A DNA stretch of 45,051 bases from Vectrevirus T145P2: sequence record OZ035747.1. The stretch is one strand, 5' to 3'. The translations under genes were made by a program, and so were the position numbers. Below the pieces are notes generated by a model. That model had not been told where the DNA came from, searched no databases, and saw nothing but the letters and a program-made list of their open reading frames with translations. Positions 4,090 to 44,893 of this stretch are shown one piece after another. Position 1 is the stretch's first letter; each line of letters opens with the position of its first letter.

Positions 4090-4299
4090 GTGAAGCGAAT
4101 CATGTTAGTGACAATCCTGCTGATTGGTTCGCTGATCACTTCCGGGTGTCAGCAGGCGTTACCAGAGAAAGCAATGGTGAAACCTCTGAGGCCGACGCTG
4201 ACGGAAGTTTACGAGGTAGACGATAAGGTCTGCTTTAGTAAGCCTGACGCTACAAAATTAGGTTTGTATATTCTTTCGCTAGAACGCGGATATAATTAA
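4090..4299 (+). CDS. outer-membrane lipoprotein, probable o-spanin (Rz1-like)
   Basis: AAGGAGG at 4077-4083 then GTG 4090 (alternative ATG 4102); MKRIMLVTILLIGSLITSGC lipoprotein signal with Cys; short Pro-containing mature part with second Cys. Confidence 0.55.
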   Translation: MKRIMLVTILLIGSLITSGCQQALPEKAMVKPLRPTLTEVYEVDDKVCFSKPDATKLGLYILSLERGYN

Positions 4300-4328: not shown

Positions 4329-4351
4329 ATTTACTGGACACTATAGAAGAG
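4329..4351 (+). promoter_or_regulatory. phage RNAP promoter upstream of tailspike genes
   Basis: ATTTACTGGACACTATAGAAGAGG, exact consensus. Confidence 0.85.
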
Positions 4352-4430
4352 GTAAGATAGCGCCGTTCTTTTGAACGGCCTATTACTAGCCAATCTTCAT
4401 AGGGAGGGTTGGGAAGTAATAGGAGGTTTA

Positions 4431-5870
4431 ATGGCTAATATTACCAAACCTGTCACAACTGGTATTATACATGAAGGAAGGCTGCTATCAGATTATCTAA
4501 AACAAGCATGGGATAACACCTTACACGCTGATAACTACTTTGTTAGTGTTAAAGACTTTGGCGCTAAGGGTGATGGCTCTGCTGATGATACTGCTGCATT
4601 CAAAGCTGCACTTGCTTCTGGTAAGAATGTATATATCCCTGTAGGTATTTATATAATTAGTGAGACTTTGTATTTTAAGAATCAGGTTATAAAAGGGGGC
4701 GGAATAGCACCTATTCCGAGTCTTGGTACAATCCTTGCAATCTCACACAGTGAGCCTGCATTGAAATATGATGTAAGTGCAGGTTACTCTATGGGTGGTT
4801 ATTTAGGTGGGTTCTTCATAGATTATGGAGAGAACAAACCAGATAACTATGCAGGCAGAAAAGGCATAGATCTAGGTGATGCCGACCAACAAGCATGGCC
4901 TTCTCAATTTATCATTGAGAACATCATTGTCCGTGGTGCATACTTTGGTTTGCATGATGAAACAGGAGCATTCCAATACTCAATGCGCAATGTGGTTGCT
5001 ATCAATTGCTGGGAGGGGTTCCGTAAGTTCACTGGAACTACAGTCCTTATGGATACATGCTATGCGCTTAATTGCTATCAAGCATATAGACTGGCTAATG
5101 TTTATAATATGACAATGAATAACTGCGCCATGGATGGATGTAATGATATCCAAGGTTTACAGGCATTTGATATTACAAACTGCAAAGGTCTTGTGATAAA
5201 TGGCATGTATAGTGAGAATTGTGAGATCCATCATAGCGGTAATGCTTCTATATTTATTCATGGAGATTCTACAGTAACAATCAACGGTTATACCTTACAC
5301 TCGCATAATGTCGTTGTTGATCCAGCATCTGGAAGTGAAGAAGCATACTTTCTTAGAGCGCACGACAGCTCTAGGGTCAATGTAGATGGAATCTTCTTCG
5401 GTGAGAACCTTAAATCTACTAGTATCTTCACCTACCCAATTATGGCCTCTGGTGAGTCTAGAATTAAGCTAGGAACTACAGCACTTAAGGCATGGGTCGG
5501 TGCTAAGGGTGGTGCATCTATGGCTGCTGTTGAAGATAGTCTCATTGAATATGACAATACCGTATTTAACCCATCACTTACTGTAGGTTGGTGCAGTAAT
5601 AATGGTGTTGTAGCTAAAGGGACACTAGTTGTAAACACAACATTAGAACCTAATGCAGATTTAAATGCAGGAACTATACAATTAGTTGGTGACTATAAAC
5701 CAAATAAAGGTGATGTTCTTACATATGGTTCTACTTTCGATGTTCAATCATGTGCTATTATTCTGAAGCCACAAGGTGATAATAGTTGTAATGTTTACAT
5801 TAAAAACCTAAGTGCAGGTAGTAGTGTTACACTTAACGGAATATTGCACGTACAGGCAATTCGTAGGTAA
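4431..5870 (+). CDS. tailspike 1: beta-helix polysaccharide depolymerase/lyase-like protein (possibly K5-type lyase)
   Basis: AGGAGG then ATG 4431; 479 aa; KDFGAKGDGSADDTAAFKAALASGKNVYIP start of pectate-lyase-like beta-helix; repeated N-x-C turns; lacks T7 gp17-type N-terminal domain. Confidence 0.75.
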   Translation: MANITKPVTTGIIHEGRLLSDYLKQAWDNTLHADNYFVSVKDFGAKGDGSADDTAAFKAALASGKNVYIPVGIYIISETLYFKNQVIKGGGIAPIPSLGTILAISHSEPALKYDVSAGYSMGGYLGGFFIDYGENKPDNYAGRKGIDLGDADQQAWPSQFIIENIIVRGAYFGLHDETGAFQYSMRNVVAINCWEGFRKFTGTTVLMDTCYALNCYQAYRLANVYNMTMNNCAMDGCNDIQGLQAFDITNCKGLVINGMYSENCEIHHSGNASIFIHGDSTVTINGYTLHSHNVVVDPASGSEEAYFLRAHDSSRVNVDGIFFGENLKSTSIFTYPIMASGESRIKLGTTALKAWVGAKGGASMAAVEDSLIEYDNTVFNPSLTVGWCSNNGVVAKGTLVVNTTLEPNADLNAGTIQLVGDYKPNKGDVLTYGSTFDVQSCAIILKPQGDNSCNVYIKNLSAGSSVTLNGILHVQAIRR

Positions 5871-5875
5871 TCACA

Positions 5876-5899
5876 GGCAGTGCGTAAGCACTGCTTTTC
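5876..5899 (+). terminator. intrinsic terminator-like hairpin between the two tailspike genes
   Basis: GCAGTGC-GTAA-GCACTGC perfect 7-bp stem with tetraloop followed by TTTT. Confidence 0.6.
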
Positions 5900-5953
5900 G
5901 CGCAACTTTTCTTAAAGGTTATCATGATGGTAGCCTTTCAGAAAGGAGGTTAC

Positions 5954-8389
5954 ATGATTCAAAGACTAGGTTCTTCATTAGTTAAATTCAAGAGTAAAAT
6001 AGCAGGTGCAATCTGGCGTAACTTGGATGACAAGCTCACCGAGGTTGTATCGCTTAAAGATTTTGGAGCCAAAGGTGATGGTAAGACAAACGACCAAGAT
6101 GCAGTAAATGCAGCGATGGCTTCAGGTAAGAGAATTGACGGTGCTGGTGCTACTTACAAAGTATCATCTTTACCTGATATGGAGCGATTCTATAACACCC
6201 GCTTCGTATGGGAACGTTTAGCAGGTCAACCTCTTTACTATGTGAGTAAAGGTTTTATCAATGGTGAACTATATAAAATCACGGATAACCCTTATTACAA
6301 TGCTTGGCCTCAAGACAAAGCGTTTGTATATGAGAACGTGATATATGCACCTTACATGGGTAGTGACCGTCATGGTGTTAGTCGTCTGCATGTATCATGG
6401 GTTAAGTCTGGTGACGATGGTCAAACATGGTCTACTCCAGAGTGGTTAACTGATCTGCATCCAGATTACCCTACAGTGAACTATCATTGTATGAGCATGG
6501 GTGTATGTCGCAACCGTCTGTTTGCCATGATTGAAACACGTACTTTAGCCAATAACGCACTAACCAATTGTGCATTGTGGGATCGTCCTATGTCTCGTAG
6601 TCTGCACCTTACTGGTGGTATCACTAAGGCTGCAAATCAGCAATATGCAACAATACATGTACCAGATCACGGATTATTCGTGGGCGATTTTGTTAACTTC
6701 TCTAATTCTGCGGTAACAGGTGTATCAGGTGATATGACTGTTGCAACGGTAATAGATAAGGACAACTTCACGGTTCTTACACCTAACCAGCAGACTTCAG
6801 ATTTGAATAACGCTGGAAAGAGTTGGCACATGGGTACTTCTTTCCATAAGTCTCCATGGCGTAAGACAGATCTTGGTCTAATCCCTAGTGTCACAGAGGT
6901 GCATAGCTTTGCTACTATTGATAACAATGGCTTTGTTATGGGATATCATCAAGGTGATGTAGCTCCACGAGAAGTTGGTCTTTTCTACTTCCCTGATGCT
7001 TTCAATAGCCCATCTAATTATGTTCGTCGTCAGATACCATCTGAGTATGAACCAGATGCGTCAGAGCCATGCATCAAGTACTATGACGGTGTATTATACC
7101 TTATCACTCGTGGCACTCGTGGTGACAGACTTGGAAGCTCTTTGCATCGTAGTAGAGATATAGGTCAGACTTGGGAGTCACTGAGATTTCCACATAATGT
7201 TCATCATACTACCTTACCTTTTGCTAAAGTAGGAGATGACCTTATTATGTTTGGTTCAGAACGTGCAGAAAATGAATGGGAAGCAGGTGCACCAGATGAC
7301 CGTTACAGGGCATCTTATCCTCGTACCTTCTATGCACGATTGAATGTAAACAATTGGAATGCAGATGATATTGAATGGGTTAACATCACAGACCAAATCT
7401 ATCAAGGGGACATTGTGAACTCTAGTGTAGGTGTAGGTTCTGTTGTAGTTAAAGACAGCTACATTTACTATATCTTTGGTGGTGAAAATCATTTCAACCC
7501 AATGACTTATGGTGACAACAAAAATAAAGACCCATTTAAAGGTCATGGACACCCTACTGATATATACTGCTATAAGATGCAGATTGCAAATGACAATCGT
7601 GTATCTCGTAAGTTTACATATGGTGCAACTCCTGGTCAAGCTATACCTACTTTCATGGGTACTGATGGGGTACGAAATATCCCTGCACCTTTGTATTTCT
7701 CAGATAACATTGTTACAGAGGATACTAAAGTTGGACACTTAACAATTAAAGCAAGCACAAGTTCCAATATACGATCTGAAGCGCAGATGGAAGGTGAATA
7801 TGGCTTTATTGGCAAGTCTGTTCCAAAGGATAACCCAACTGGTCAACGTTTGATTATTTGTGGTGGAGAAGAGACTTCGTCCTCTTCAGGTGCACAGATA
7901 ACTTTGCACGGCTCTAATTCAAGTAATGCTAATCGTATCACTTATAACGGAAATGAGCACCTATTCCAAGGTGCACCAATCATGCCTGCTGTAGATAACC
8001 AGTTTGCTGCTGGTGGGCCTAGTAACCGATTCACTACCATCTACCTAGGTAGTGACCCTGTTACAACTTCAGATGCTGAACACAAGTACGGCATCTCTAG
8101 TATTAATACCAAGGTGTTAAAGGCTTGGGGTAGAGTTGGTTTTAAACAGTATGGTTTGAATAGTGAAGCAGAGAGGAATCTTGATAGCATACACTTCGGT
8201 GTCTTGGCTCAGGATATTGTAGCTGCTTTTGAAGCTGAAGGATTGGATGCCATTAAGTATGGAATTGTGTCCTTCGAAGAAGGTAGGTACGGTGTGAGAT
8301 ATAGTGAAGTTCTAATCCTAGAGGCTGCCTACACTCGCCATCGTCTTGATAAATTAGAGGAGATGTACGCCGCTAATAAAATCAGTTAA
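5954..8389 (+). CDS. tailspike 2: endo-N-acetylneuraminidase (endosialidase) with C-terminal intramolecular chaperone domain
   Basis: AAAGGAGG then ATG 5954; 811 aa; C-terminal SDAEHKYGISS...LDSIHFGVLAQD region resembles the self-cleaving chaperone domain of K1-phage endosialidases (from memory). Confidence 0.85.
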   Translation: MIQRLGSSLVKFKSKIAGAIWRNLDDKLTEVVSLKDFGAKGDGKTNDQDAVNAAMASGKRIDGAGATYKVSSLPDMERFYNTRFVWERLAGQPLYYVSKGFINGELYKITDNPYYNAWPQDKAFVYENVIYAPYMGSDRHGVSRLHVSWVKSGDDGQTWSTPEWLTDLHPDYPTVNYHCMSMGVCRNRLFAMIETRTLANNALTNCALWDRPMSRSLHLTGGITKAANQQYATIHVPDHGLFVGDFVNFSNSAVTGVSGDMTVATVIDKDNFTVLTPNQQTSDLNNAGKSWHMGTSFHKSPWRKTDLGLIPSVTEVHSFATIDNNGFVMGYHQGDVAPREVGLFYFPDAFNSPSNYVRRQIPSEYEPDASEPCIKYYDGVLYLITRGTRGDRLGSSLHRSRDIGQTWESLRFPHNVHHTTLPFAKVGDDLIMFGSERAENEWEAGAPDDRYRASYPRTFYARLNVNNWNADDIEWVNITDQIYQGDIVNSSVGVGSVVVKDSYIYYIFGGENHFNPMTYGDNKNKDPFKGHGHPTDIYCYKMQIANDNRVSRKFTYGATPGQAIPTFMGTDGVRNIPAPLYFSDNIVTEDTKVGHLTIKASTSSNIRSEAQMEGEYGFIGKSVPKDNPTGQRLIICGGEETSSSSGAQITLHGSNSSNANRITYNGNEHLFQGAPIMPAVDNQFAAGGPSNRFTTIYLGSDPVTTSDAEHKYGISSINTKVLKAWGRVGFKQYGLNSEAERNLDSIHFGVLAQDIVAAFEAEGLDAIKYGIVSFEEGRYGVRYSEVLILEAAYTRHRLDKLEEMYAANKIS

Positions 8390-8697: not shown

Positions 8698-9055
8698 CCA
8701 AAGTCAAAATTTTGATATAGGCGTGTGTGAGGTGTCTCGCCCTCGCCCTCGCCGGATTTCCCCCATATGGGGCCGCGCTGCGGTTGGCTTGGGAGTTGGG
8801 CTGGGCTGGTCCGTCTTCGACGGGTGGCCTAGGGCTTGCCGAGGTCTGCTCTTAGTGGCTGCACAAGGAGAACGCCTAGGAAGCGCTAGGGCACGCCTTA
8901 GTATTGGACAAGGTGATTGCCTTAGTGCAACCGCTTAGGGCTTACACAGGCCGTTTTAGGGCCATTCATGAGCGTTTGACAGGGTGGGCGTGGGTGGGCT
9001 ATCTGTTCGTTTCGCTCCACTACGTTACGCTACACTCACCGCGCTTGTGTATCCT

Positions 9056-24624: not shown

Positions 24625-24657
24625 CCCTGTCTGCCTTAGTGTAGGCAGGGTCTTTTG
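24625..24657 (+). terminator. intrinsic terminator
   Basis: CCCTGTCTGC / GTAGGCAGGG 10-bp stem (with G-U pairs) followed by TCTTTTG; sequence-related to terminator at 33679. Confidence 0.7.
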
Positions 24658-24682
24658 CGTAATAGTTATTGGAGAATGAATT

Positions 24683-24973
24683 ATGCCGACTATTGAAGAT
24701 CGTTTCCAGATTCACGCATCTTACTCGCCTATGCTTAGAGGTCATCTTATTACCATTAGATTAGATTATGAGTTGTATCTTGTAGATTATTTATATACAG
24801 ACTATGACTGCCAACGTAACATGGTGGGACCGATGAGGTGGGCGGCTGAGTGGGTGCGCGAGCACGTGCTGAAGGAGTGGCCTACATGCGACCAAACTTC
24901 GACTTCGGAGCTACAGTATCGGAAGACAATAATCTCATCCTGTGGCCGACTGAAGGTAATCGAATCGCTTTAA
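24683..24973 (+). CDS. hypothetical protein (96 aa) overlapping the exonuclease gene start
   Basis: GGAGA then ATG 24683; 3-prime 88 nt overlap exonuclease in another frame. Confidence 0.4.
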   Translation: MPTIEDRFQIHASYSPMLRGHLITIRLDYELYLVDYLYTDYDCQRNMVGPMRWAAEWVREHVLKEWPTCDQTSTSELQYRKTIISSCGRLKVIESL

Positions 24974-25914
24974 TAGATGCCGATATGTTGCCTTACATCG
25001 TCGCGTATACAATCAGCGACATGACTTATGTACGAGCCACAACTCGTGTTAAGTCAGGACAAGTCCCATCAATCAAAGATACGCCTGAGTGTAAGCAAGC
25101 GTGTGACCGTGTGAACTCCTTGCTTAACTCTTGGGTGTATGCAGCAGAATGTGATGCAGCTAAGTTATTCATGACGAAATCAGAAGCTAACTTCCGTGTC
25201 CGCCTAGCATTCACCAAGCCTTATAAAGGTCAACGTAAGACCGAGAAGCCTCCATTCTTCTATGAATTGCGAGAGCATCTCTTAGAGGTTCACGGTGCAA
25301 TCTTGGCAGATGGAGAGGAAGCAGACGACCTCATGAGTATCGCACAATGGGACAGCCACCGCCGCTTCCAGCAAGATACAGGTAACGAGTTCCCTATCGG
25401 TAGTCCAGAGCATAAAGCATTCTCTGATACTTGCATCGTTTCCTTGGATAAGGATTTGATGATTGTTCCCGGTTGGCATCTACAGCCGGGTCAAGAGAAG
25501 AAGTGGGTAGAGCCTATGGGCTGGCTTGAGCTACGCCGTAAGGCTAATGGGCAAGTCAAAGATCTAAAAGGTGCTGGCCTCATGTTCCACTATGCACAGA
25601 TGATTATCGGTGATGATATTGATAACTATGCTGGCATACCAGGTCGTGGTGCTAAATATGCCTATGATCTTCTCAAAGGTTGTAAGACAGAGAAAGAATT
25701 GTACATGGCAGTGCTTGGTGCTTACAAAGCTAAGTTCGGTCATGGACAGGTTAAGATTAAGAATTACCGAGGTGGTTATCGGGTGGGCAAAGCCTTTGAC
25801 CTTATGCTTGAATGCGGTCGCTTAGCTCACATGGCTAGGTTCAAAGGTGATATATGGCGAGCCGATAAGAACCCAATCTTGTGGGGAGATGATGCGGAAT
25901 GGTTAGCAAATTAA
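24886..25914 (+). CDS. 5-prime to 3-prime exonuclease (T7 gp6-like, FEN family)
   Basis: AAGGAG then ATG 24886; 342 aa; ALIDADMLPY, DDLMSIAQ, SLDKDLMIVP, GDDIDNYAGIPG parallel T7 gp6 motifs. Confidence 0.9.
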   Translation: MRPNFDFGATVSEDNNLILWPTEGNRIALIDADMLPYIVAYTISDMTYVRATTRVKSGQVPSIKDTPECKQACDRVNSLLNSWVYAAECDAAKLFMTKSEANFRVRLAFTKPYKGQRKTEKPPFFYELREHLLEVHGAILADGEEADDLMSIAQWDSHRRFQQDTGNEFPIGSPEHKAFSDTCIVSLDKDLMIVPGWHLQPGQEKKWVEPMGWLELRRKANGQVKDLKGAGLMFHYAQMIIGDDIDNYAGIPGRGAKYAYDLLKGCKTEKELYMAVLGAYKAKFGHGQVKIKNYRGGYRVGKAFDLMLECGRLAHMARFKGDIWRADKNPILWGDDAEWLAN

Positions 25915-43600: not shown

Positions 43601-43931
43601 AGGGTTGGCCTTTGGTGCAATGGGTATGATGAGTACAACTGCTGTATTTAGTCTAGGTGGAGATTTCTTAGGTGGCCTAGGTGTTCTACCTTCTGAGTTA
43701 GTACAATCCCGTTATGAGGCTGGCTTTCAGACTAAGGGTTTGATAGACCAAATACCACTAGTAGGTGTTGGTCAAGATGCATATCGTTTAGCAGATTCTA
43801 TAACTAGATACGCAGAGGGTGATACAGAAGGTGTAGATGTGGCACGTAGGGCTTTACGCTTAGTGCCTCTAGCTAATGTAATAGGAATCCAGAACGCATT
43901 GCGTTATGGCTTAGATGAACTGGAGGATTAA
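40623..43931 (+). CDS. internal virion protein C (gp16-like, 1102 aa)
   Basis: Size and position; GGAGG upstream. Confidence 0.85.
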   Translation: MEQDIKTNWAGYVQSTPEPFSIEAAPVSAPTIRQRNELQEQVLEAKADADILGAVGAAFQNEWLAFGGKRWYDRATADFTPQPDFEIQPEQREALRFKYGTDMMQTITEGVRSEDELNFRIQNADEDLERNKRIAQAGWVGSVATIGAAVLDPVGWVASIPTGGAAKVGLVGRAVRGAIAAGVSNAAIESVLVQGDMTRDLDDIMVALGSGMAMGGVIGAVARGRATKLSEQGDDRAASIVRSADAGDRYVRAVADDSIGAMRVKGEEVLTEGAFDVSSKGEDLLKTLQREGNAIDMTPRRWAGTLSALGTVVHSSQDASVRGLGARLFESPQGLGMQKASASLMQNTNLNRLKSADMNRFNDGFDLWLKENNINPVSGHTNSHYVQQYNEKVWEAVRIGMDESTPKSIRMAAEGQQAMYREALALRQRSGEAGFEKVKADDKYMPDIFDSMKARRQFSMHDKEDIIELFSRAYQNGSRKVPKEVADDIARAQVNRVADATLTGQLSFEKAMSGQTKAEYEALMRKAGFSDEEIEKMVEALDNKETRDNISNRAKMSLGLDVTQEYNGIRIRDFMNTNVEELTDNYMKEAAGGAALARQGFSTYQAALNAIDLVERNARNAAKDTKAHAQFEAESAKIRQSEPDYKKAQEKIEELKKRLKLKEKDEAAGLAIDEEIRQMREGLRLIMGKSIDSNPQDLSTKMLRRGRDITGVLRLGQMGFAQLGELANFMGEFGIAATTMALGKQFRFTSKALRNGDGFFRDKNLAEVERMVGYIGEDNWLTTKGARPDEFGDVTTVRGMMAHFDQSMNSIRRAQTNLSLFRMAQGSLERMTNRQIALSFIDHLEGKKIIPQKKLEELGLTQEFMTNLQKHYDANSKGSGLLGFDTMPYDMGETLANAIRRKSGLIIQRNFIGDEGIWMNKALGKTFAQLKSFSLVSGEKQFGRGIRHDKIGLAKKTAYGFALGSIVYAAKAYVNSIGREDQDEYLEEKLSPKGLAFGAMGMMSTTAVFSLGGDFLGGLGVLPSELVQSRYEAGFQTKGLIDQIPLVGVGQDAYRLADSITRYAEGDTEGVDVARRALRLVPLANVIGIQNALRYGLDELED

Positions 43932-44893
43932 TGAGTTATACTTTCACAGAACATATAGCCAACGGTACGCAAGTAACCTATCCCTTTAGCTTTGCTGGTA
44001 GGGATAAAGGTTATCTTCGTGCCTCAGATGTGATAGTGGAGTCTCTTCAAGGTAACACTTGGATTGAGGTTACATCTGGCTGGCAACTAACTGGCACGCA
44101 CCAGATTACTTTTGATGTAGCACCAGTTGCAGGTTTGAAGTTCCGTATTCGAAGGGAAGTACAAAAGGAGTATCCATACGCTGAGTTTGACCGTGGTGTT
44201 ACCTTGGATATGAAGTCTTTAAATGGTTCTTTCATTCATATACTGGAGATTACACAGGAGTTACTTGACGGGTTTTATCCAGAAGGATACTTCATTAAAC
44301 AGAATGTAAGCTGGGGCGGCAATAAGATTACTGATTTGGCTGATGGCACAAATCCTGGAGATGCAGTAAATAAAGGGCAGCTTGATGCCATCGACAAGAA
44401 GCATACAGATTGGAACGCCAAACAGGACATTGAGATTGCTGGCCTTAAGGCTGGTATGACCTCTGGTATTGCGCACAGAACTGTTCCTTGGTACACGATA
44501 GCCCAAGGTGGTGAGATTTCCGTAAAACCACCTTATGAATTTCAAGATGCACTAGTTTTCCTTAATGGGGTATTGCAGCACCAAATTGTAGGCGCATACT
44601 CTATAAGCAACAACACTATCACTTTCGCAGAGCCGCTTGTGGCGGGTACAGAGGTGTATGTGCTGATTGGTAGTCGTGTGGCTACATCTGAACCTAATAT
44701 TCAGTTAGAGTTGAACTTTGACTTAGTAGAAGGACAACAAGTAGTACAGATTGGCTCTGCATTTAAGTACATTGAGGTCTACCTTGATGGATTATTACAA
44801 CCTAAACTTGCTTATCAGGTAGACGGTGACATTGTTACTTTCTCAGAAAGAGTACCAGAATGCCGGATGACTGCTAAGATTATCACAGCATAA
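43931..44893 (+). CDS. tail fibre adaptor protein (T7 gp17 N-terminal domain-like, no receptor-binding domain)
   Basis: 320 aa; resembles the N-terminal tail-attachment part of T7 gp17 only. Confidence 0.85.
   Translation: MSYTFTEHIANGTQVTYPFSFAGRDKGYLRASDVIVESLQGNTWIEVTSGWQLTGTHQITFDVAPVAGLKFRIRREVQKEYPYAEFDRGVTLDMKSLNGSFIHILEITQELLDGFYPEGYFIKQNVSWGGNKITDLADGTNPGDAVNKGQLDAIDKKHTDWNAKQDIEIAGLKAGMTSGIAHRTVPWYTIAQGGEISVKPPYEFQDALVFLNGVLQHQIVGAYSISNNTITFAEPLVAGTEVYVLIGSRVATSEPNIQLELNFDLVEGQQVVQIGSAFKYIEVYLDGLLQPKLAYQVDGDIVTFSERVPECRMTAKIITA

Follow-up and report, generated by a model that had tools for sequence, protein, structure and literature searches.

Tailspike cassette of a K1-5-like Escherichia coli podophage: a predicted K1 endosialidase paired with a probable O2 O-antigen-specific spike

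Positions 4329-8389 of a 45,051 bp stretch of DNA (sequence record OZ035747.1, Vectrevirus T145P2; the whole stretch is hereafter termed the window) are the receptor-recognition cassette of a K1-5/K1E-like podophage of the genus Vectrevirus. The window constitutes a complete, circularly permuted genome of the K1-5/K1E/SP6 type (Autographiviridae, Molineuxvirinae), and the cassette contains two consecutive open reading frames (ORFs) on the + strand, ORF A and ORF B, in the same order as in phage K1-5. Judged by its sequence, ORF B is an endosialidase tailspike specific for the K1 polysialic acid capsule. A preliminary description of the stretch had predicted two capsule specificities, with K5 heparosan as the possible substrate of the first spike. 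In the reading presented here, to which a probability of roughly 0.7 is assigned, ORF A is an O2 O-antigen-specific spike and not a K5 enzyme, and the phage has two entry routes into O2:K1 Escherichia coli.

The cassette and its two spike genes

The cassette, together with the distant adaptor gene, comprises the following features.

4329-4351, + strand: phage RNA polymerase promoter of the SP6/K1-5 type, ATTTACTGGACACTATAGAAGAG; exact match to the window's own 21-nt consensus
4346-4430, + strand: structured 5' leader with the Shine-Dalgarno sequence AGGAGG at 4418-4423; left homology arm of the cassette
4431-5870, + strand: ORF A, 479 amino acids, ATG behind AGGAGG; occupies the gp46 slot
4431-4535, + strand: predicted adaptor-docking N-terminus of ORF A (MANITKPVTTGIIHEGRLLSDYL...), residues 1-35; disordered in the monomer model
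4536-5600, + strand: right-handed parallel beta-helix of ORF A, residues 36-390; presumed glycan-binding and catalytic body
5601-5867, + strand: conserved C-terminal domain of ORF A, residues 391-479; well conserved in the family alignment
5875-5898, + strand: intergenic stem-loop with a 9 bp stem and a GUAA loop, followed by UUUU; start of the right homology arm
5954-8389, + strand: ORF B, 811 amino acids, ATG behind AAGGAGG; gp47 homologue
8069-8386, + strand: C-terminal intramolecular chaperone domain (Peptidase_S74) of ORF B, residues 706-811
43931-44893, + strand: adaptor protein, 320 amino acids; gp37 homologue and carrier of both spikes

The Shine-Dalgarno sequence in front of each spike ORF is strong. 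Over its whole 4.06 kb, the cassette is 97.6% identical to phage Mt1B1_P10 (MT496971) and 98.2% identical to OZ035802.1, to which another 25 kb of the window aligns with 99.0% identity. In K1-5, K1E and many other K1 phages only about 65% of the cassette is matched, namely the flanks and the second gene. Alignment with K1-5 revealed near-complete identity through the promoter, the leader and approximately the first seven codons of ORF A (MAxxTKP), after which the similarity collapses, to restart about 5 nt past the ORF A stop codon at the intergenic hairpin. This collapse and return at the edges of the gene indicate that ORF A has cleanly taken the place of the K5 lyase body, with a conserved arm on either side; modular exchange of spikes has long been proposed for the K1-5 phage group (review PMC6966330). 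The G+C content is 44.9% for the whole genome, 39.2% for ORF A and 41.6% for ORF B. The value for ORF A lies below that of every 1440-nt segment sampled in 50-nt steps across the genome, and ORF B is within the lowest 7.6% of segments of its own size. Internal repeats in the cassette were limited to short chance matches. The 267-bp direct terminal repeat annotated in Mt1B1_P10 has a single match in the window (8736-9001, 97.8% identity), which places the physical genome ends at about 8736 and 9001 rather than at window positions 1 and 45051. With the right end at about 9001, the spike cassette is the final gene module, as in K1-5.

In ORF B, all five endosialidase-related Pfam families were found above their cut-offs and in the expected order: End_N_terminal (residues 39-102), End_beta_propel (103-545, E = 2e-223), End_beta_barrel (214-296), End_tail_spike (546-705) and Peptidase_S74 (PF13884; 706-763, E = 9.8e-10, starting at nucleotide 8069). 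The protein is identical to K1-5 gp47 at 796 of 811 residues (98%), the N-terminus being the same in both, and it matches the K1F endosialidase structures PDB 3gvl/1v0e from end to end (E = 0). Furthermore, residues 588-764 match PDB 3gw6, a 275-residue endo-N-acetylneuraminidase fragment (E = 9.5e-60).

For ORF A, the Pfam search returned an N-terminal PF12708 motif and a sub-threshold Beta_helix match only, with no match to Peptidase_S74; the best PHROG family was phrog_8649, labelled "unknown function", and NCBIfam returned nothing. The two spikes share only a stretch of about 40 residues around KDFGAKGDG (residues 41-49 in ORF A and 35-43 in ORF B), and their N-termini before this motif differ. 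The longer FGAxGDxxxDDT motif of ORF A is common to many beta-helix proteins. BLASTP alignment of ORF A with the K5 lyase gp46 of K1-5 covered residues 1-74 only, at 39% identity, and phmmer against PDB 2x3h covered residues 1-78 only. The part closest to K1-5 gp46 is formed by residues 1-23 (MANITKPVTTGIIHEGRLLSDYL), 14 of 23 of which are identical. These residues look like a slot-specific docking peptide, and a docking role for the N-terminus would agree with the K1-5 and K1E structures summarised in PMC6966330. Three acidic residues that are invariant in the family alignment, D176, D235 and E262, are candidate catalytic carboxylates. Residues 391-479, which have a predicted local distance difference test score (pLDDT) below 50 in the monomer model, possibly form a trimerisation domain or a second binding domain.

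The ORF A protein is 97.9% identical to the corresponding spike of Mt1B1_P10 and 98.1% identical to that of OZ035802.1. The ratio of nonsynonymous to synonymous substitution rates (dN/dS) is 0.18 against Mt1B1_P10 and 0.05 against phage pO2, which indicates a functional gene under purifying selection. ORF A belongs to a small beta-helix family without an assigned function, with the following relatives.

pO2, Vec13 and UFJF_EcSW4 (Kayfunavirus): about 80% identity over ORF A residues 40-479; C-terminal part of the sole tail fibre, fused to a gp17 N-domain
P0005: 52% identity to ORF A; single spike of a 44-kb podovirus with a separate adaptor
P0004: 53% identity to ORF A; second of two adjacent spikes on a 71-kb contig
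T145 siphoviruses (Drexlerviridae): 28% identity in the beta-helix only; tail spike

The siphovirus identity refers to ORF A residues 63-319 and to a spike encoded at about 24636-25454 in OZ035767.1 and related Veterinaerplatzvirus T145P1 records.

The T7 gp17-like anchor Phage_T7_tail (PF03906) was found by Pfam in neither ORF A nor ORF B. It is present in residues 3-153 of the adaptor (27.2 bits against a cut-off of 25.2), residues 1-317 of which also match chain e of PDB 7y22, a "tail adaptor protein" (E = 1e-81); the best PHROG match is phrog_2710, a tail fibre family. N-terminal docking of two spikes on the adaptor, six per tail, is known for K1-5 and K1E, and the presence of both spikes on the virion in six copies each is established for K1-5 (PMC6966330).

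Much of the preliminary description is borne out by these data. The two ORFs and the promoter at 4329-4351 agree with two consecutive tailspike genes behind their own promoter. The reduced G+C contents confirm that both genes are AT-rich, and together with the broken K1-5 identity at the edges of ORF A they support an exchangeable cassette. The first spike had been described as a 479-residue beta-helix protein, in keeping with ORF 4431-5870 and PF12708, and both spikes carry KDFGAKGDG near their start as stated. The Pfam domains and the gp47 identity uphold the second as an 811-residue endosialidase with a C-terminal chaperone and K1 specificity. The distribution of PF03906 and the PDB 7y22 match likewise sustain the proposal that both spikes lack a particle-binding domain and are attached through the protein encoded at 43931-44893.

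Receptor genetics and host range

The receptors of the near-identical phage Mt1B1_P10 (hereafter P10) have been studied genetically in its host Mt1B1, a K1-positive O2:H6 strain. A K1-deficient emrR mutant of Mt1B1 resists the endosialidase-only phage P3 and stays sensitive to P10 (PMC12361893). An O-antigen-ligase mutant is still P10-sensitive, and only the emrR and ligase double mutant is resistant (PMC12361893). Mutants in neuB and wzy were likewise selected by P10 in mice (PMC12361893). The authors concluded that P10 uses either K1 or the O-antigen; the spikes were not mentioned (PMC12361893). Of the two spikes that the phage possesses, ORF B explains the K1 dependence, which leaves ORF A as the obvious candidate for use of the O-antigen, presumably that of serogroup O2. 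Mucoid lon mutants overproducing colanic acid showed partial resistance to P10 (PMC12361893), and colanic acid was rejected as a substrate of ORF A for this reason.

Host range was evaluated from the complete interaction matrix and strain table of the preprint by Gaborieau et al. (10.1101/2023.11.22.567924). Phage T145_P2 was isolated on T145, an O2:H6:K1 strain (10.1101/2023.11.22.567924). By our own count it lyses 32 of 38 K1-typed strains, which span seven O types (O1, O2, O7, O15, O45, O46 and O75); this is consistent with K1 dependence, as are the neuB and emrR mutations that affect P10. K1 alone predicts the interactions of T145_P2 with 73% precision and 72% recall (10.1101/2023.11.22.567924).

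Among strains not typed as K1, lysis by T145_P2 was concentrated in serogroup O2: seven of 11 O2 strains were lysed, including some without a called ABC capsule, compared with approximately six of the 316 strains that are neither O2 nor K1. In Fisher's exact test of O2 against non-O2 within the non-K1 strains, the odds ratio was 90 (p = 7e-9), and it was 39 (p = 5e-4) when four strains with doubtful capsule calls were omitted. K5 strains were lysed when they were also O2 (2/2 O2:K5) and not otherwise (0/14 non-O2). Two of the three K5 isolation hosts are unlysed by T145_P2 and the third scores 1.

The siphoviruses isolated on T145, which carry the distant ORF A homologue and no endosialidase, show a comparable bias. 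Ten of their 17 hits are O2 strains, whatever the K type, and lysis is absent on K1 strains of other O types, for example ECOR-24, -35, -36 and -39. The spike of these siphoviruses, taken with their O2-biased range, suggests a wider O2-associated spike family.

Two side observations emerged from the matrix. The capsule-less, rough or O-negative strains BL21, ECOR-13 and ATCC 35469 are lysed by T145_P2, whereas P10 fails to infect the Mt1B1 double mutant that has lost both capsule and ligase. In addition, the scores of T145_P2 and AL505_P3 diverge on several strains (T145, 3 versus 0; ECOR-40 and ECOR-41, 3 versus 0; IAI39, 5 versus 1; IAI58, 1 versus 5). On the premise that the window and OZ035802.1 represent these two phages, they are 98-99% identical; the differences could stem from the approximately nine amino-acid changes in ORF A or from elsewhere, for example anti-defence genes.

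Substrate of the first spike

The repeating unit of the O2 O-antigen consists of three L-rhamnose residues and one N-acetylglucosamine with a D-Fuc3NAc branch, and contains no uronic acid; O50 lacks the branch but is otherwise the same chain (PMC7685785). Without a uronic acid, beta-elimination is unavailable, and a glycoside hydrolase is therefore the likelier activity for ORF A. The earlier designation of the first spike as "lyase-like" thus holds at the level of the fold, whereas lyase chemistry is unlikely. We infer that ORF A is the O-antigen component of the cassette, O2-specific and a hydrolase: it most likely binds the rhamnose-rich O2 O-antigen of lipopolysaccharide (LPS) and probably hydrolyses it. 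The predicted pair of capsule specificities finds no support in P10, the second receptor of which is, according to the ligase and wzy mutations, LPS-bound O-antigen.

Several observations weigh against this assignment. The evidence linking ORF A to the O-antigen is indirect; the gene is discussed in neither paper, and neither attributes the O-antigen dependence to it. In the fold search, ORF A matched lyases, epimerases and hydrolases with similar scores at identities of 12-18%, which discriminates neither substrate nor mechanism. The tested phages are 98-99% identical to the window but not identical. Four O2:H1 strains (three K7 and one without a called capsule) are unlysed by T145_P2 and T205 (O2:K7) is lysed weakly, which could reflect masking by K7, O50 status or defence systems; in-silico O2 typing cannot tell O2 from O50. 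The lysed "non-K1" O2 strains IAI38, NILS61 and NILS62 belong to sequence types ST79 and ST141, as do typed O2:K1 strains in the same table, and their capsule may simply be uncalled. Lysis of the rough or O-negative BL21, ECOR-13 and E. fergusonii ATCC 35469 implies that some backgrounds can be infected with neither glycan present. Finally, the sole fibre of a Kayfunavirus isolated on ATCC 11775, a strain that we take to be O1:K1:H7, carries the 80%-identical domain, and the specificity of ORF A may accordingly be broader than, or different from, O2. O1 as a co-target, considered on account of AL505 (O1:K1) and the ATCC 11775 phage, was unsupported; O1 strains not typed as K1 score 0-1 for T145_P2.

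Three other explanations were weighed. A second capsule depolymerase, whether K5 heparosan lyase-like or directed at another K type, would make the cassette a counterpart of that of K1-5, and ORF A does occupy the exact slot of the K5 lyase, and shares its first 23-74 residues; the two cleanest non-K1 hosts, ECOR-49 and ECOR-50, are K5 strains. However, ORF A has no similarity to the K5 lyase past residue 74 and no C-terminal chaperone domain, T145_P2 fails on every non-O2 K5 strain and on two of the three K5 isolation hosts, and O2 strains without a called ABC capsule are lysed. Moreover, resistance to P10 requires loss of the O-antigen ligase, wzy mutants were selected, and neither gene lies in a non-K1 capsule locus. 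Pairwise alignment, the PDB sequence search and the published host range together led us to reject the identity of ORF A with the K5 lyase, so that the K5 heparosan specificity suggested in the preliminary description is not upheld; for K5 this explanation is largely refuted already, and in its general form we regard it as very improbable. Even less credence is given to the view that ORF A plays no part in infection, being a mere passenger or a degenerate spike comparable to the truncated gp46 of K1E, and that lysis of non-K1 strains arises from causes such as lysis from without, uncalled K1 or rough variants. The gp46 slot of K1E does hold a non-functional remnant (PMC6966330), and K1 alone explains most of the host range. 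Against this, ORF A is full length with a good Shine-Dalgarno sequence and is under purifying selection, its relatives serve as the sole fibre of Kayfunavirus phages and the sole spike of a 44-kb adaptor-type podovirus, and P10 infects K1-deficient mutants, which the endosialidase-only P3 does not.

More serious, yet still unlikely in our judgement, is the explanation that ORF A recognises another surface glycan, such as enterobacterial common antigen, or an epitope in the LPS core, or that it binds without cutting, and that the O-antigen dependence of P10 is indirect, for instance through altered LPS packing. The lysis of rough or O-negative strains, the several unlysed O2 strains and the fact that no catalytic site can be assigned from the sequence or fold of ORF A would all fit. 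Conversely, the resistance of capsule-less, ligase-less Mt1B1 shows that an exposed core is insufficient in this strain, mutants in wzy, the O-antigen polymerase gene, were selected independently, the enrichment of O2 among non-K1 hosts is strong, and cells that overproduce colanic acid are protected, not sensitised.

A broader interpretation, which includes O2 as the target, can be formulated, and we favour it only slightly. The two spikes would not be meant for alternative hosts, as those of K1-5 are, but would correspond to the two polysaccharide layers of one pathogen type, namely O2:K1 extraintestinal pathogenic and avian pathogenic E. coli, and ORF A would be the first identified depolymerase of O2 (possibly of the backbone common to O2 and O50) and the founding member of a module family found across phage architectures. 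The module would then have spread, at 50-80% identity, to the gp46 slot of Vectrevirus, the gp17 fusions of Kayfunavirus, the single-spike adaptor podovirus of 44 kb and the two-spike phage of 71 kb, with a 28% identical version in Drexlerviridae. A survey of O-antigen receptor-binding proteins in Virology Journal covers neither the ORF A protein nor O2 (PMC10408124).

Strains of the types O2:K1, O1:K1 and O18:K1 are agents of neonatal meningitis, sepsis, urinary infections and avian colibacillosis. Phages and endosialidases directed at K1 are candidates for therapy, the main weakness of which is escape by capsule loss; against a pair of spikes that attacks capsule and O-antigen, the same cell has to lose both. 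In Mt1B1, loss of LPS structures carried a cost in the gut, and of the three phages studied only P10 persisted in mice (PMC12361893). If ORF A is the O-antigen route, it would be a candidate depolymerase of O2 for use in typing or therapy, a portable cassette, its recombination flanks being known, with which K1-5-type phages could be engineered, and a better predictor of host range, given that K1 alone explains only about 73% of the interactions of this phage. The understanding of how such cassettes work is unchanged.

Expression, assembly and relation to known systems

The promoter at 4329-4351, with a predicted +1 at G4346, is identical in K1-5 and Mt1B1_P10. Its 21-nt core occurs nine times in the window with up to three mismatches, always on the + strand, compared with zero copies expected by chance; the nine positions provide a transcription map of the genome.

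123, 2660, 4331, 15434, 17746, 22209, 22977, 24123 and 32391, + strand: start positions of the promoter core copies

The RNA from 4346 to 4445 folds with -41 kcal/mol (z = -6.6; none of 200 shuffled sequences was equally stable). One helix, formed between CCUAUUAC (4379-4386) and GUAAUAGG (4412-4419), includes the first bases of the Shine-Dalgarno sequence. K1-5 (to about codon 7 of ORF A) and Mt1B1_P10 have almost the same leader, the role of which may be mRNA protection, adjustment of first-spike translation or simply that of a recombination arm. The intergenic hairpin, GGCAGUGC-GUAA-GCACUGCU at 5875-5896, has a free energy of -14.8 kcal/mol (z = -2.8) and is conserved base for base in K1-5. 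A generic terminator scan did not list it, only four U residues following the stem, and folding was used instead. No phage promoter was found between the hairpin and ORF B in the region searched, 5871-5953. Lacking its own promoter, ORF B must be reached by transcripts that pass the hairpin; complete termination there is therefore excluded, which leaves partial termination or stabilisation of the RNA. The "hairpin terminator" proposed in the preliminary description therefore stands as a hairpin, which folds and is conserved in K1-5, but not as a full terminator.

Just upstream of the spike promoter, a small ORF at 4102-4299 (MLVTILLIGSLITSGC...) encodes a lipoprotein signal with a lipobox cysteine. 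It is the counterpart of K1-5 gene 45 and of a hypothetical protein of Mt1B1_P10, and its product resembles an outer-membrane spanin, with which the lysis cassette would end.

A working model can be proposed in which, late in infection, the phage RNA polymerase would initiate at G4346 and transcribe the leader, ORF A, the stem-loop and ORF B, expression of ORF B depending on read-through of the hairpin. Both spikes would trimerise, ORF B with the aid of its C-terminal chaperone domain, which would be released after folding, and ORF A probably via its conserved C-terminal 90 residues. The short N-termini of both would dock on the gp37-like adaptor, the T7 gp17-like N-domain of which would plug into the tail, so that both an ORF A and an ORF B spike would be present at each of the six tail positions. 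The endosialidase would tunnel through the alpha-2,8-polysialic acid while ORF A acted on the O2 O-antigen, and either route would reach the outer membrane. On O2:K1 extraintestinal E. coli, escape would then require loss of the capsule and the O-antigen together, and some O2 strains lacking K1 would also be infectable.

The dual-spike module belongs to the K1-5/SP6 system, the defining features of which were all found in so far as they could be tested. Genomes almost identical to this one can be found in public records, and the use of two receptors by P10 has been published; what would be new is only the assignment of this phenotype to ORF A and to serogroup O2. Mt1B1_P10 and OZ035802.1 are effectively the same phage type as the window, although the window is identical to neither; both spikes are labelled "hypothetical protein" in MT496971, and OZ035802.1 is unannotated.

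The K1-5 cassette (gp46 K5 lyase and gp47 endosialidase on gp37) shares with the present one the genus, promoter, leader, hairpin and gene order, an endosialidase that is 98% identical, an adaptor with a T7 gp17-like N-domain and conservation of the first 23 residues of gp46. It differs in the body of gp46, which is replaced here by an unrelated 479-residue beta-helix protein without a chaperone domain, and in the second target, which is the K5 capsule of a different host in K1-5 and most likely the O2 O-antigen of the same host here. The related phage SP6 has the same adaptor-based two-spike design, in which gp37 carries gp46 and gp47, both of them O-antigen tailspikes, and a V-shaped unit rotates to present either gp46 or gp47 (PMC6966330). 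Its gp46 slot holds an O-antigen endoglycosidase (an endorhamnosidase), demonstrating that this slot can carry O-antigen spikes (PMC6966330). However, the spikes of SP6 serve two Salmonella serogroups, whereas those described here would address a capsule and an O-antigen that co-occur on one host. ORF A resembles the O-antigen tailspike endoglycosidases of P22, Sf6, HK620 and CBA120 (TSP2) in having a right-handed parallel beta-helix as the spike body; no sequence similarity to P22-type spikes was detected, and Sf6 and other tailspikes gave only generic fold matches. The fibres of the Kayfunavirus phages pO2, Vec13 and UFJF_EcSW4 have the receptor-binding module in common with ORF A, in their C-terminal 440 residues, but in these fibres it forms one polypeptide with the gp17 N-domain and a Tail_spike_N domain. 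Synonymous sites are saturated between these fibres and ORF A, which indicates that the transfer was not recent.

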